Shown here in pieces: positions 15,982 through 38,370 of a DNA stretch of 41,211 nt. The stretch is taken from positions 1-41,211 of IMG/VR virus record IMGVR_UViG_2698536518_000008; one strand, written 5' to 3'. The first letter of the stretch is position 1, and every line of letters starts with the position of its first letter. Source of the DNA: a virus. Taxonomy: Duplodnaviria > Heunggongvirae > Uroviricota > Caudoviricetes. The position numbers and the translations under genes were made by a program. The notes under the pieces are model-generated. The model was not told the origin of the DNA and made no database searches. It saw nothing but the letters and a program-made list of their open reading frames with translations.

Positions 15982-16124
15982 CACTCGAATCCTACTTTGC
16001 TGATCATCTTCGTCTGCGATGGACTCGGTTACGCATCTATCGTCACCCAGGTTCATTTGCTACGGACTACCGAATTTTACGCAATTACATCAGCCGCTAT
16101 AAACCATCAGGAGCAGAAGCATGA
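15978..16124 (+). CDS. Small hypothetical protein (48 aa), not in supplied ORF track
   Basis: Hand translation [48 protein letters not shown]; ATGA overlaps at both ends (rusA stop and Q start). Confidence 0.3.
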
Positions 16125-16885
16125 ATCTCGAAAACACAGTGAAATACCACTTCGCGAAGTCAACGATGATTAGCGACGCTCCACGCGCGACAGCATCTGA
16201 CTCATTAACCGGCACTGACATTATGGCGGCGATCGGAATGACACAGAGCCGTGCTGCTCTCGGGTTCAGTGCATTCCTAGGAAAGATGGATATCAGTGAT
16301 TACGATCGCGAGCGAGCGATTGATTTGCTGACAAAATATGCAATTGAGCACTGCGATAAGGTTGCTGCCTTACGCAAGCTTGAGAGTGATGTTAAGCCAA
16401 AGGTAATGCAAGTTCTCGCAACTTTCGCCTTTGCTGATTACTCCCGGAGTGCGGCCAGCACCAGAACGTGCGACTGCTGCCATGGAAATAAGTTTGTCGA
16501 AGCTGAAGTAATGACGATGAAGCATATCGGACAGCCACACCTTAGCGAAAAAAGAGAGATGGTTAAGGTGCTTTGCCACAAATGCAAAGGGAAGGGTGCT
16601 CTGACCAACGCATGCCAGTGCAATGGCAAAGGAACAGTATTAGACAAAGAGAAAACTATTCTACAGCGCGGCGTTCCTGCATATAAAACCTGTACGCGCT
16701 GCAATGGGCGTGGTTATGCCAGATTGCTACCTGATAGCGTCCGTAAATACATCTGCGTAACGGTGATGGATATACCTGAAACCACGTGGCGCAGGTCTTA
16801 CAAGGATTTTTTCGAAAGTCTGGTAGGTGAGTGCATCAAGCAGGAAGAGTACGCAAACCAGATGTTGAACAAAGTCACGCGATAG
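16121..16885 (+). CDS. Q-like late-gene antiterminator (Cys-rich zinc-binding)
   Basis: 254 aa; four C-x2-C-like motifs (CDCC, CHKC, CQCNGKG, CTRCNGRG); last gene before a long non-coding region that precedes the lysis and structural genes. Confidence 0.6.
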   Translation: MNLENTVKYHFAKSTMISDAPRATASDSLTGTDIMAAIGMTQSRAALGFSAFLGKMDISDYDRERAIDLLTKYAIEHCDKVAALRKLESDVKPKVMQVLATFAFADYSRSAASTRTCDCCHGNKFVEAEVMTMKHIGQPHLSEKREMVKVLCHKCKGKGALTNACQCNGKGTVLDKEKTILQRGVPAYKTCTRCNGRGYARLLPDSVRKYICVTVMDIPETTWRRSYKDFFESLVGECIKQEEYANQMLNKVTR

Positions 16886-16927
16886 TGAATGTTTTCTATG
16901 AAATAGGATTTATCTAGAAAACTACAC

Positions 16928-16956
16928 TTTACAAAGTGGCGATTTTTGTTTAATCT
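16928..16956 (+). promoter_or_regulatory. Candidate late promoter (pR'-like)
   Basis: TTTACA-N17-TAATCT about 45 nt downstream of the Q stop codon. Confidence 0.35.
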
Positions 16957-17138
16957 CGATTCTAACGATGGGTTACTGACTTCGTTGGCGGTGAGGCAAA
17001 AGAGGCGGCTCTCACCACTGAACCGCCTAGTTGGTATCTTCGGCGCATCGTCTGGTACTCCAACCGTAGAGAGCTGAGAGGTTCTCCAAGACCTGAGTAA
17101 TCAGGCCGCCATCTGGATGATGGCGTTGTCATTCAATA

Positions 17139-17196
17139 GCCCGGCCCCGTTCGCAGACAATAGTTAGTATCTGCATAATGGCTCCGGGCTTTTTTA
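17139..17196 (+). terminator. Candidate tR'-like terminator (end of a possible 6S-like short late leader RNA)
   Basis: Compound hairpin GCCCGG...GCAGA-N12-TCTGC...CCGGGC followed by TTTTTTAT. Confidence 0.4.
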
Positions 17197-17410
17197 TATC
17201 TGCACAACAGGTAAGGGCATTTTCAGAGTTCGACTCTCTGGGTGGGTATTCGTGCCGACACGCGAGACGTGAGTGCTCTTTCCGTTGTGGTGAATTGTAA
17301 AGTCAGAGGACGTGATGTTAGGCGTAATCTGGAATTAGCCACCAGACACCACTATCTCAAATACCTACCAGGACCATAAGAGCGAAAGCTCAACGCACTA
17401 CCCTCATCTT

Positions 17411-17434
17411 GCCAGCATCGCCGCTGGCTTTTTT
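17411..17434 (+). terminator. Intrinsic terminator
   Basis: GCCAGC-atcgcc-GCTGGC followed by TTTTTT. Confidence 0.55.
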
Positions 17435-17511
17435 AAAGCGCATTACCACCAAGAACCAGACCCAACCAACTCATTGCTGAATATCTGTGGCTACGGTGAT
17501 TAGTGCGCTTC

Positions 17512-17539
17512 AAAAAAGAAAACCCAGCACATGGCTGGG
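17512..17539 (-). terminator. Minus-strand intrinsic terminator with no upstream minus-strand CDS
   Basis: Plus-strand AAAAAAGAAAA-CCCAGC-acatg-GCTGGG; U-tract follows the hairpin only on the minus strand. Confidence 0.45.
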
Positions 17540-17774
17540 CTTCGTGAAGATGGGCGGCAAGAGAACTGAATACTCGTCACCCGGAATGGTGCCTACGTAC
17601 CTGCGAAAGTCGAATTGATGTCTGGTTGCAGATGGCAGAAGCCATGCTGTACTTACCAATGTGTGATGTATTCGATAAAAAAGCTGATCGATTCCGGTTG
17701 CAAAGTTGCGCGGGGATTGCTTGAATTCAGCTATGCTCGCGAAGCTACACCCGCAGCGATAGATAAAAATTAAT

Positions 17775-17803
17775 AACCCGCCGATGAGCGGGTTTTCTTT
17801 TTT
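17775..17803. terminator. Bidirectional-looking intrinsic terminator upstream of the kinase cassette
   Basis: AACCCGC-cgatga-GCGGGTT followed by TTCTTTTTT and preceded by A-rich run. Confidence 0.55.
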
Positions 17804-17825
17804 GAGGTGTATTTAAGCTGCTGCA

Positions 17826-17893
17826 GGGTGTAGATAGATTTCTTTGGAAAATTAAACCTATTGATATGGTGTGGTTTTTCTTTTGGGTGTAGA
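17826..17893. repeat. Direct repeats GGGTGTAGAT upstream of kinase gene (candidate regulator sites/promoter region)
   Basis: GGGTGTAGAT at 17826-17835 and 17884-17893, related GGTGTAT at 17804-17810 and GGTGTGG at 17868; AT-rich surroundings with TTGATA hexamer at 17861. Confidence 0.35.
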
Positions 17894-17925
17894 TTTTGCT
17901 CATGAGAATTTTATGTGAGTAAGCT

Positions 17926-18708
17926 ATGGAACCCAGGGGTAATTACCTTATAAAACCATTGAGAGATCTAGGTTTTGGTGCTTTTGGTCGTGTGGAAAAG
18001 GTTGAGGTATATAACACCGATAGCCATCTTTGTGGTGAGTATGCAAGGAAAGTTCTTTCAGTTAATCCTGCGTTATTAAATGAATATTTTAGTGTAGATG
18101 ACTGGAAGCGTCGGTTTAAGCGTGAAGTCGACTACCAAGCCAAGTGCAATCATGATCATGTTGTAAGAATTTGCATACATCATTTAAGCATAGAAAACCC
18201 TTGGTTTGTGATGGAGTTGGCAGAAACAGACCTAAGAAGCGAACTAAAAGCGGGCGTTCTTTCTGATGATGAAAAGCTGTTAGCCCTGAAGATGGTGTTT
18301 GAAGGCGTTAAGTATATCCATGACGCTGGGTTGCTTCACAGGGATCTGAAACCTGAGAATATCCTCAAGTTTGAAGGAGGCTGTTACAAAATTTCCGATT
18401 TCGGCCTAATCAAAAGTATGGATTCGAAAGCCCAATCTGATTTTTTGTCAGGTGTACTTCAAAACAAAAAAATGGGTATTGGCACTGCTAAGTACATGTC
18501 TGACGAGGCTAAACGCGGAGTATATACACAGAAATCAGATATTTACGCGCTAGGTGTTATTACTAGTGAAATGAATCTATCTCATATTGACGGTATAACG
18601 ACATTAATCGATAAATCAGCGGCATTTACGCCTCGTTCAAGGTACGATTCTGTCACTGAGATGATAGACATTCTTGATGATATTGTTGCAGCAAGGAGAG
18701 GCAAATGA
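17926..18708 (+). CDS. Hanks-type (eukaryotic-like) Ser/Thr protein kinase, catalytic domain only
   Basis: 260 aa; Gly-loop GFGAFG (aa 16-21), catalytic Lys in YARKV (K42), HRDLKPEN catalytic loop (aa 138-145, nt 18337-18360), DFG (158-160), SDIYALG subdomain IX; AT-rich codon usage unlike flanking phage genes. Confidence 0.85.
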   Translation: MEPRGNYLIKPLRDLGFGAFGRVEKVEVYNTDSHLCGEYARKVLSVNPALLNEYFSVDDWKRRFKREVDYQAKCNHDHVVRICIHHLSIENPWFVMELAETDLRSELKAGVLSDDEKLLALKMVFEGVKYIHDAGLLHRDLKPENILKFEGGCYKISDFGLIKSMDSKAQSDFLSGVLQNKKMGIGTAKYMSDEAKRGVYTQKSDIYALGVITSEMNLSHIDGITTLIDKSAAFTPRSRYDSVTEMIDILDDIVAARRGK

Positions 18709-19496
18709 TTGAGTTGTTGAGCTGTGGTGCATTTTCATGCCCCAAAGATCATGGTCGTGAAAACCAAGATGCGTTACTACTCCCGCAACAATGTGATGAT
18801 GGCTTCATTTTTGCTATTGCTGATGGTGTCGGGTCTTATGCTGGTGCTAAAGAAGCAGCGCAAGCTGCAGTAGACTATGTCGCAACTCATAAACTGAAAG
18901 CCAGTTCTGATCCTGATGCGATACTTAGTGGTGCAAAAGACAAAATATCTGAACTATCTCAGTTCGATTCAGAGAAGCGCAAGGCCGCAACAACATTATC
19001 CTACTGTGTTGTACATGGTGAGTTACTTAATGTAATCCATGTAGGCGATACTCGGGTGTATGTAAAAATTGATAACAAATTAAAACTACTAACGAAAGAT
19101 CACTCACAGCATCAAGAGTTGCTCGACGATGGGTTATATACGAAAAGGGAATTGGAAGACTTACCAGGAAAGAACATGCTTACTGCAGCTATTTCTAAAG
19201 TCCTGCCAATAAAATTTCAGCATATTTCGTTACCCCTGTCAGATTTGATGGACCATGACGGTGTTGTTTCTCTTTTTCTGATGTCCGATGGAGCCCATCA
19301 CTTCTGGGAACGCCGCCCGCGTTTTTCTCCCAATACATTGAAGAATGCTACTAACTTTTCAACCAATCTTTTTAAGCGGATACAGCGCGCTGGACCAACT
19401 GACGATCATTCACTGATTGCTGTGAATTTAAAGATAAGCCTGAAAAATGAAGAATCACTTAACCCATTTAAACTACATAAGCCATTGGGTAATTGA
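18705..19496 (+). CDS. PP2C/PPM-family Ser/Thr protein phosphatase
   Basis: 263 aa; metal-binding motifs FAIADGVGSYAGA, HVGDTRVY, KDHSQ and LMSDGAHH typical of PPM phosphatases; ATGA overlap with kinase stop. Confidence 0.8.
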   Translation: MIELLSCGAFSCPKDHGRENQDALLLPQQCDDGFIFAIADGVGSYAGAKEAAQAAVDYVATHKLKASSDPDAILSGAKDKISELSQFDSEKRKAATTLSYCVVHGELLNVIHVGDTRVYVKIDNKLKLLTKDHSQHQELLDDGLYTKRELEDLPGKNMLTAAISKVLPIKFQHISLPLSDLMDHDGVVSLFLMSDGAHHFWERRPRFSPNTLKNATNFSTNLFKRIQRAGPTDDHSLIAVNLKISLKNEESLNPFKLHKPLGN

Positions 19497-19640
19497 TGCA
19501 ACTACAGTGCTGGCTCAATCTTAAACGGCCATCACAACCACAGGCGTCTGACCATAGGTGATGACATTTGCCATAACGGTGAAGCGGAAGTTTTAGAAGG
19601 ACCTCTCGCTCCACCTATATAAACAAGTTAACTCACTTCG

Positions 19641-19665
19641 AGGCTGCCAACTGGTGGCCTTTTTC
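19641..19665 (+). terminator. Intrinsic terminator downstream of phosphatase gene
   Basis: AGGCUGCC-aacu-GGUGGCCU stem (two G-U pairs) followed by TTTTCATTTC. Confidence 0.45.
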
Positions 19666-19775
19666 ATTTCAGGCTCACGGGAATCAATTACTACGTGCTT
19701 TGTTGATAAATCCAGCCCGTGAAGCCTGACCTTATCATCACACACAGCGCCATCCGAAAAATCGGAGGTGAGGCT

Positions 19776-37752: not shown

Positions 37753-38370
37753 ATGATCGAAGAACTTCACGACACTATCGGCCTGGGTGTTGAATTTGCT
37801 CTGGCCGATGTTCACACCATTGTTGTCGCAAAAATAACGTCTGTAAATGACAAAACAATCAGTTGCGTCCCCGTTATCAATCGGGTTGTGAAAGGGAGCA
37901 GCAAGCAACTCCCAGAGTTCATTGAAGTCCCCCCGGTAATTTTGCAAGGCGGTGATAGTTATATCGCCGAACCAATTGCGGCTGGTGACTATTGCCTCGT
38001 CCTTATCTCTGAGCGTTGTTATGACGCTTGGTATGCGGGTAGCGACTTTGTTTCACCACTTGAAATGCGTATGCACGATTATTCAGATGGCTTCGCTCTG
38101 TGTGGGGTTAACCCACAGGCTACCGCGATCAATATCCCTAAGAAGAACAGGATGATGAAGGGGGATTCTGACCACGAGGGTGATTTAAACCTCACAGGAA
38201 ATATTACCCAGAAAGATGGTAAGACGACTCTGGAAGAATGCGATGTTCTGAATGTACTTCAATATTCCCAGGTAAAGACAGGCGGTAAGTCTGGGGTGTC
38301 TGGTTCATTTCGAAGCGATGACGGGAAAACAATCACAGTTACCAACGGTATTGTCACGGAGATCTCATGA
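37753..38370 (+). CDS. Putative baseplate spike/assembly protein
   Basis: 205 aa; position before baseplate wedge genes; weak RBS so start uncertain. Confidence 0.4.
   Translation: MIEELHDTIGLGVEFALADVHTIVVAKITSVNDKTISCVPVINRVVKGSSKQLPEFIEVPPVILQGGDSYIAEPIAAGDYCLVLISERCYDAWYAGSDFVSPLEMRMHDYSDGFALCGVNPQATAINIPKKNRMMKGDSDHEGDLNLTGNITQKDGKTTLEECDVLNVLQYSQVKTGGKSGVSGSFRSDDGKTITVTNGIVTEIS

Follow-up and report, generated by a model that had tools for sequence, protein, structure and literature searches.

The 1040-nt gap (16886-17925) that separates the Q gene (16121-16885) from a Ser/Thr kinase gene (17926-18708) in the virus record IMGVR_UViG_2698536518_000008 is very probably the late-gene control region of a lambdoid prophage, organised as in phage lambda and pieced together as a mosaic from modules of several phages. 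The stretch analysed, hereafter the window, comprises positions 1 to 41,211 of that record, and the anatomy of the gap, its homologies, its module boundaries and the covariation within it are described below. The modules follow one another in the order Q and promoter (to 16956), lambda-like leader (16964 to about 17300), P22/HK633-type segment (17340-17564), DUF1133 remnant with terminator 3 (17556-17796) and a kinase cassette (from 17797), and the genes after Q match, in order, Pkinase, PP2C_2, a holin, a lysozyme and a DUF2514 protein in Pfam. Scanning 16000-19000 returned eight terminator-like sites compared to 2.3 ± 1.6 in shuffles, while promoter-like sites were not enriched (6 versus 4.8 ± 2.0 in shuffles; consensus scan). 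The longest open reading frames (ORFs) in the gap encode 56 amino acids (aa; minus strand, 16962-17132) and 52 aa, in agreement with a first-pass annotation that had reported none of 60 aa or more. Its label of the gap as non-coding holds in that respect, but not for 17557-17724, where the 3' end of a DUF1133 gene survives in frame.

As in lambda, the region lies directly after a gene of the Q-lambda family and presents a promoter in the same alignment columns, AACGATGGGTTA at +1, a leader body and a compound terminator. The candidate late promoter, pR', starts 43 nt downstream of the Q stop codon at 16885. A sigma70-like promoter of the form TTTACA-N17-TAATCT had been proposed here from the bare sequence; that sequence is present and aligns with the promoters of lambda and P22, but it fails a consensus scan. 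In a three-way alignment of the window, lambda and Salmonella phage SI8 (alignment A1) and in a separate alignment with P22, the candidate occupies the columns of lambda pR' and of the late promoter P annotated in the P22 record, with -35 hexamers of TTGACT in lambda and TTTACA in the window and -10 hexamers of TAAATT and TAATCT, respectively. The P22 record annotates, in addition to the late promoter, a lambda-like qut site, the 5' nucleotide of the late RNA and tR', and across the stretch between P22 genes 23 and 13 the promoter, qut site and RNA start all align with the window. The annotated 5' nucleotide falls on the first A of AACGAT, at window position 16964, and this hexamer is identical in lambda and P22 in the same columns. 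Similarly, AACGATGGGTTA is conserved at +1 in the window, lambda and SI8, its P22 counterpart being AACGATGGATAA. The lambda AACGAT element reportedly induces a sigma70-dependent promoter-proximal pause, at which Q loads (work of Ring, Yarnell and Roberts in 1996).

The Q protein itself is only 36% identical to lambda Q and carries two insertions in the zinc region, and the promoter hexamers and spacer of the window are unrelated in sequence to those of lambda. The insertions, of 34 and 13 aa, lie in the cysteine-rich region and bring extra CxxC motifs and a weak DnaJ_CXXCXGXG match. As the spacer AAGTGGCGATTTTTGTT, the presumed Q-binding element, is unlike that of lambda, the Q encoded here may constitute a separate class of specificity in the Q-lambda family. 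One E. coli prophage encodes a Q protein 100% identical to it, and SI8 encodes a Q that is 83% identical together with the same promoter. Positions 16886-16956 are 100% identical in four E. coli prophages, and in the one of the four that was examined an identical Q is followed by the identical 71 nt, with the match ending exactly at the end of the -10 hexamer and a short P22-like leader following it. Because an identical Q is accompanied by identical downstream sequence and then by a different leader, Q forms a module with the promoter and the presumed Q-binding spacer in it. Of 77 unique leaders, few have this type of promoter, and most, like P22 itself, have promoters of the lambda/P22 type.

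The leader that follows is homologous to lambda 6S RNA. A BLAST search against phage genomes matched window positions 16964-17221 to lambda (79.8% identity, in two pieces), beginning at the first A of AACGAT and extending through tR'. The leader core (16990-17082) is mostly at least 90% conserved among the 77 unique leaders, and the whole predicted RNA (16964-17196) folds with a minimum free energy of -85.1 kcal/mol (z = -2.8). The start codon of lambda orf-64, which overlaps 6S, is absent from both the window and SI8 in alignment A1, and conservation of the leader is therefore not explained by orf-64. A 43-nt insertion relative to lambda 6S, found in no fetched leader with a lambda-type tR' core, accounts for the predicted length of 233 nt instead of the 194 nt of lambda. 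Lambda 6S and the window leader both end in the same nested three-part hairpin followed by six U residues. The compound hairpin and U-tract at 17139-17196, previously read as a possible end of a 6S-like leader, is indeed the homologue of lambda tR': the stem (17138-17190) folds at -24.2 kcal/mol (z = -4.0), with none of 200 shuffles folding as well, and is followed by UUUUUU at 17191-17196. The stems of the two terminators differ by compensation, with GCCCGG/CCGGGC, TCCCGA/TCGGGA and GCCCAG/CTGGGC in comparison with lambda and with a Stx1-phage copy, and GCAGA/UCUGC versus GCAGG/CCUGC in the inner stem, and the version in the window is unique among 16 variants.

Constitutive initiation at lambda pR' yields a 6S RNA that is made in lysogens, undergoes processing and binds Hfq, with the StxS small RNA as the analogous leader of Stx phages (PMC7547250; bioRxiv 10.1101/2024.10.31.621285). 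StxS and IsrK of Gifsy-1 are regulatory RNAs that arise by early termination at an antitermination-controlled phage promoter (PMC7547250, PMC4825925). The predicted RNA of the window would resemble both in being a short lysogen RNA produced by a constitutive late promoter and a terminator. However, the Q-proximal position showed no similarity in sequence to StxS, and the tR' hairpin of the window matches Stx phages only downstream of cI. There, directly after cI in Stx1 and Stx2a phages, the tR'-type compound terminator (window 17138-17195) is reused at approximately 90% identity (positions 1501-1558 of phage AU5Stx1, contig L005, for the Stx1 copy), and the module thus serves two different regulatory contexts. 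P22 departs further from the window in this part, with a leader of approximately 55 nt, a simple terminator and no 6S body.

Similarity to lambda continues beyond tR', where the same TATCTGCACAACAGGTAAG sequence follows the terminator, and is lost further downstream, the part from about 17340 not being lambda-like. Within the 17168-17223 segment, a degenerate second copy (TATCTGCACAACAGGTAAGGGCATTTT; 74% identical) comes immediately after the 3' half of tR' (TATCTGCATAATGGCTCCGGGCTTTTT); lambda has this copy in the same place, and the first part of it also occurs in other lambdoid leaders. A hairpin at 17224-17240 (CAGAG-TTCGACT-CTCTG) resembles the T arm of a tRNA, and its stem covaries with that of Enterobacter phage CobraSix (AGAG/CTCT versus AGGG/CCCT), in which the segment homologous to this area starts approximately 100 nt downstream of a tRNA-Arg gene. 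Identification as a tRNA gene, such as those present between Q and the lysis genes in Stx phages and CobraSix, or as a tRNA remnant was rejected, leaving a T-arm-like hairpin only: ARAGORN found no tRNA in the whole window and an Rfam scan gave no tRNA match.

Further downstream, scanning and folding both support the two plus-strand terminators of the first-pass annotation (17411-17434 and 17775-17803, here terminators 2 and 3). Terminator 2 is joined to a structured element of approximately 124 nt (17424-17547). A repeat search showed that the terminator 2 U-tract and the bases after it (17428-17445) are complementary to 17501-17518, and these two arms (17429-17445 with 17501-17518) form the basal stem, P1, of an element that also contains the inner stems P2 and P3 and, directly after the second arm, hairpin P4 (17519-17543). 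Positions 17395-17560 fold into a multi-branch structure of -57.6 kcal/mol (z = -3.8), a stability that none of 200 shuffles attains. An anchor-pattern scan of viral contigs recovered 119 loci with the element, comprising 74 unique variants, and nearly all of these fold independently to the same long basal stem despite very different stem sequences. A covariance model (R1), built from nine consistently aligned sequences, matched all 71 loci searched (152 bits for the window). In the R1 alignment, 88.5% of cells are paired compared to 77.0 ± 0.5% after shuffling (reached in 0 of 500) and 33-46% when the partners are slid, while the covariation score is 0.330 versus 0.137 (again 0 of 500) and 0.02-0.06, respectively; two-sided changes affect 19 of the 29 pairs, in 213 cells.

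The element was present in 128 fetched loci, mostly viral contigs, with a Q-family gene upstream on the same strand in 87 of the 95 loci with enough flank (median distance 240 nt) and a known holin downstream in 71 of 98. In P22 it lies immediately after tR' (record positions 37957-38082), in a stretch with no annotation, and is not adjacent to an upstream hairpin and U-tract as it is in the window; phages of the HK633 type have, at the position of terminator 2, a hairpin of another sequence (GGGCU/AGCCC). Homology of terminator 2 to P22 tR' was considered and rejected, as the latter is situated approximately 20 nt further upstream and is unrelated in sequence. An Rfam covariance-model scan found no family at either the leader (16964-17200) or the element (17424-17547), and at a permissive threshold gave only chance-level matches from terminator hairpins, the best of which (Trp_leader, 22.6 bits against a cut-off of 41) reflects a terminator hairpin only. 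The chances appear to us evenly balanced that the element is an undescribed family of cis-acting structured RNAs that belongs to the leaders of late operons in lambdoid phages of the Q-lambda type (P22, HK633, SI8 and many prophages), and that it is perhaps an RNase III processing and 5'-stabilising module together with an antisense terminator that sets the amount of late mRNA (holin and, here, kinase) after Q has acted. It is possibly the one part of the region that is undescribed, the remainder being a known kind of system in a new mosaic.

The joints between modules are visible in comparisons with other phages. Positions 17340-17564 are approximately 93-96% identical to the SI8 group of Salmonella phages, and 17429-17564 are approximately 77% identical to P22 just after its tR'. 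The linker at 17340-17410 is identified as a recombination joint because another contig (L240), with the same kinase, a different Q and a short leader, joins the sequence of the window at about 17340-17358. The exact junction between the P22-type and DUF1133 segments was not found in species-representative genomes. At the far end, similarity to a cargo-free prophage is lost inside the U-tract of terminator 3 and kinase-cassette sequence begins. The resulting assembly recurs as a unit: the identical kinase is indexed in 286 blocks of a public collection, and the module comprising Q, the 1040-nt region, the kinase and the PP2C gene is at least 99.7% identical in seven of the eight contigs examined, while the flanking nin and lysis genes differ.

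Taken with what is established for lambda and P22, from which initiation, pausing, Q loading and termination efficiencies are carried over by analogy, this anatomy most probably describes a lambda-type late switch of mosaic origin with a structured leader element that is read through. In such a switch, pR' would fire constitutively from a start near 16964, and AACGAT in the first transcribed bases would hold the sigma70-bound RNA polymerase in a promoter-proximal pause, where Q, bound at the promoter-spacer site, would join it. Without Q, transcription would stop at the tR' homologue (3' end at approximately 17191-17196) and release the 233-nt 6S-like RNA, and any polymerase leaking through would meet three more intrinsic terminators (17411-17434, 17775-17803 and 19640-19668) before the holin gene. 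With Q, the polymerase would ignore all four terminators and transcribe the kinase/PP2C pair and the lysis and structural genes. The element's long duplex may then act as a signal for RNA processing or stability, possibly as an RNase III site at which cleavage would place P4 close to the new 5' end, and P4 read on the minus strand may terminate antisense transcription.

Several observations weigh against this reading. The pR' hexamers match the consensus at five of six (-35) and three of six (-10) positions, below the threshold of the consensus scan and at chance level, and it is therefore homology that supports the candidate. The spacer is wholly different from the lambda Q-binding element, and binding of Q there is presumed only from the co-inheritance of the two. 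The R1 alignment was fitted to the proposed structure, so that its pairing counts are somewhat inflated, a bias of which the per-sequence folds are free. Unguided alignment with MAFFT followed by RNAalifold missed the long stem, the 3' arm of which was out of register, and was replaced by per-sequence folding and covariance-model alignment. Finally, the covariance model found no match in the lambda locus, and a role for RNase III at the element is conjecture.

Table 1 Features of the late control region and its flanks, with window coordinates, strand and the evidence for each
Feature	Position	Strand	Evidence or content
Q antiterminator gene, Q-lambda family, 254 aa	16121-16885	+	Pfam PF03589 Antiterm, E = 8e-44
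Candidate late promoter pR'	16928-16956	+	-35 TTTACA 16928-16933; 17-nt spacer; -10 TAATCT 16951-16956
Predicted transcription start (16964) and -10-like AACGAT	16964-16969	+	Alignment with lambda, SI8 and P22
Predicted 6S-like late leader RNA, 233 nt	16964-17196	+	Homology to lambda, beginning at the late RNA start and including tR'
Insertion relative to lambda 6S, 43 nt	about 17092-17134	+	Alignment A1; contains hairpin 17107-17125, -13.8 kcal/mol
tR' compound intrinsic terminator, nested three-part stem and U6	17138-17196	+	Fold; homology to lambda tR'
Post-tR' segment homologous to lambda	17197-17300	+	Alignments A1 and A13; includes T-arm-like hairpin 17224-17240
Conserved linker	17340-17410	+	Common to SI8, E. 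coli KCJ3K291 prophage and contig L240
Terminator 2, GCCAGC/GCUGGC stem and U6	17411-17434	+	Scan: 17411-17428 and T6; -11.6 kcal/mol
Structured late-leader element, about 124 nt	17424-17547	+	Covariance model R1, 152 bits; covariation
Hairpin P4 as minus-strand intrinsic terminator, CCCAGC/GCUGGG and UUUUCUUUUUU	17510-17543	-	Scan; -14.7 kcal/mol
Recombination junction, shared sequence GGCAAGAGA	17556-17564		SI8/P22-type similarity to 17564, DUF1133-type from 17556
3' remnant of DUF1133 (Q21-related) gene, codons 138-192 and stop	17557-17724	+	DNA and protein identity
Terminator 3	17775-17803	+	Scan: stem 17775-17794 and TTCTTTTTT; -11.4 kcal/mol
AT-rich region upstream of cassette	17797-17925	+	Repeat D5; GGTGT at 17806, 17827, 17868 and 17886
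Ser/Thr kinase and PP2C phosphatase cassette	17926-19496	+	Pfam Pkinase, PP2C_2; PADLOC kinase models
Terminator 4, just upstream of holin gene	19640-19668	+	Scan; -13.7 kcal/mol, z = -3.3

The cargo of the region is the kinase/PP2C cassette, in which a 4-nt overlap joins the kinase frame to the start of the PP2C gene. Among the PADLOC defence-kinase models, mad6, PD-T4-6 and Stk2 match the kinase; however, the PD-T4-6 models describe single-gene kinases, whereas the kinase of the window is translationally coupled to a phosphatase. The cassette was absent from 5426 complete E. coli genomes, and a search of species-representative genomes for the kinase returned only a 65%-identical metagenome-assembled genome (MAG) of Buttiauxella. 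Like a moron, the pair lies between terminators in a Q-to-holin hotspot, and other phages have it elsewhere in their late regions: in Cronobacter phage phiES15 it follows a Q82-type Q, and in E. coli phage Flotzy it follows the spanin. The downstream terminator (19640-19661) belongs to a conserved holin-adjacent segment of approximately 80 nt, which is common to many E. coli prophages with other cargo between Q and holin (82-94% identity), and the sharing of this segment beside varied cargo marks the site as an insertion hotspot.

It is plausible, though we would place it somewhat short of probable, that the cassette is transcribed mainly from a promoter of its own within 17797-17925 and is shielded by the upstream terminators from pR' read-through, as in a classic moron. 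The AT-rich region contains four GGTGT copies where approximately 0.12 are expected (3 of 20,000 shuffles reach four), the set (17806-17894) including two exact copies of GGGTGTAGAT, and GGTGTA-N2-TT is found approximately 35 nt upstream of the kinase start codon in the distant cassettes of phiES15 and the Buttiauxella MAG, in degenerate form also in Flotzy. This motif may be a promoter of the cassette or the site of a regulator. Terminators flank the cassette on both sides, and its kinase resembles defence kinases, which need to be in place ahead of infection. Against such autonomy, no sigma70-type promoter in 17797-17925 passes the consensus scan, and here the cassette differs from typical morons; in addition, it is co-oriented with the late operon and would be transcribed by Q-modified polymerase in any case. 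Transcription from an own promoter is compatible with the lambda-type late switch and is no true alternative to it.

For the structured element, a role as a bidirectional transcription insulator, in which two convergent terminators surround a spacer and no RNA-processing signal is involved, appears doubtful. Hairpin 1 with its six U residues and P4 with its U-tract each make a canonical terminator, the former on the plus and the latter on the minus strand, P4 being conserved in P22, HK633 and SI8, and reverse-oriented cargo between Q and holin in related prophages makes antisense transcription plausible. In loci of the window type the covariance model also matches the minus strand (17404-17522, 33.7 bits), a match that reflects the quasi-palindromic layout of hairpin, U-tract, stem-loop, A-tract and hairpin and that fits an insulator. 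However, P22-type variants have no hairpin beside the 5' U-rich arm and yet keep the long stem through many compensatory changes, P2, P3 and the conserved loops are not needed for termination, and the G-U pairs fit only a plus-strand RNA, placing the structure on that strand. Insulation and RNA processing are not mutually exclusive.

The segment between the element and the cassette derives from a second antiterminator locus. Positions 17556-17796 are 97.5-98.3% identical in DNA to the last 169 nt of E. coli prophage DUF1133 genes and the 72 nt downstream of them, and the encoded sequence equals, at 100% identity, residues 138-192 of a protein of 192 aa that is intact in an E. coli prophage and matches both PF06576 and PF06530 (Phage_antitermQ, the Q21 family). 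The window thus has the C-terminal 55 codons and the downstream terminator of a Q21-family/DUF1133 gene, but in a truncated copy (55 of 192 residues) without a usable start codon, and the acting antiterminator is of the Q-lambda family. Terminator 3 has its stem from the DUF1133 module and occurs as well in a cargo-free E. coli prophage (L002), similarity to which ends at 17796, inside the U-tract; this terminator is the end piece of an antiterminator gene that was displaced. A perfect 16-nt inverted repeat (17510-17525 and 17790-17805; TCAAAAAAGAAAACCC and GGGTTTTCTTTTTTGA) brackets the remnant. The tail of terminator 3 is unlike that of the DUF1133-type source prophage and resembles the tails of P22-type elements, which suggests that recombination took place within terminator U-tracts. 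The remnant was also considered as the site of a second late promoter, which was rejected, with only 8 of 12 matches by eye and none passing the scan.

The first-pass annotation had suggested that the extra terminators may be scars of cargo acquisition and provide layered insulation of late transcription. Comparison with relatives lacking the kinase cassette goes against the first suggestion, since terminator 2, with the element, occurs in the cargo-free phages P22, HK633 and SI8, and terminator 3 in the cargo-free prophage; what stands of it is that the cassette begins in the U-tract of terminator 3 (17796). Terminator 2 is best read as the ancestral 5' edge of the structured leader element and not as a cargo scar. 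Layered insulation would be a reasonable functional consequence of the stacked terminators. It is unlikely that the extra terminators and the DUF1133 remnant are simply neutral recombination debris and that pR' and tR' alone matter. The DUF1133 piece is indeed a dead remnant, terminator 3 was inherited from a source module in which there is no cargo, and the mosaic joints fall at short shared sequences, all of which debris would explain. However, the Q-to-PP2C module persists as a unit between different flanks, although this may reflect recent spread only, terminator 2 lies inside an element under clear structural selection, and several terminators are also stacked in other lambdoid Q-to-holin regions (three in L002). 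That the region instead codes for a small protein or several, for instance an orf-64-like peptide or the product of a short minus-strand ORF, is very improbable: lambda orf-64 is annotated, SI8 has an annotated 46-aa minus-strand coding sequence in the homologous area and ORFs of 39-56 aa exist in the region, but the orf-64 start codon is missing, the SI8 ORF has no counterpart of at least 30 aa in the window, and conservation tracks base pairing and terminator structure and not a reading frame.

For annotation, these results place the likely start and stops of late transcription in a prophage module that is widespread in public collections. They also allow the rebuilding of a lambdoid late region to be followed base by base: Q and its promoter are swapped as a unit with a break at the -10 hexamer, leaders are exchanged at short conserved linkers, cargo joins at a terminator U-tract, and a displaced antiterminator gene leaves its tail and terminator behind. 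The 233-nt 6S-like RNA is predicted to be constitutive in lysogens, and its counterparts lambda 6S and StxS are both Hfq-bound, the latter with regulatory activity. In addition, the late leaders of these phages contain a conserved structured element for which Rfam has no family and the P22 record no annotation. With four serial terminators before the kinase and holin genes, the region offers a testable case of how tightly lysogens must silence a constitutive late promoter.

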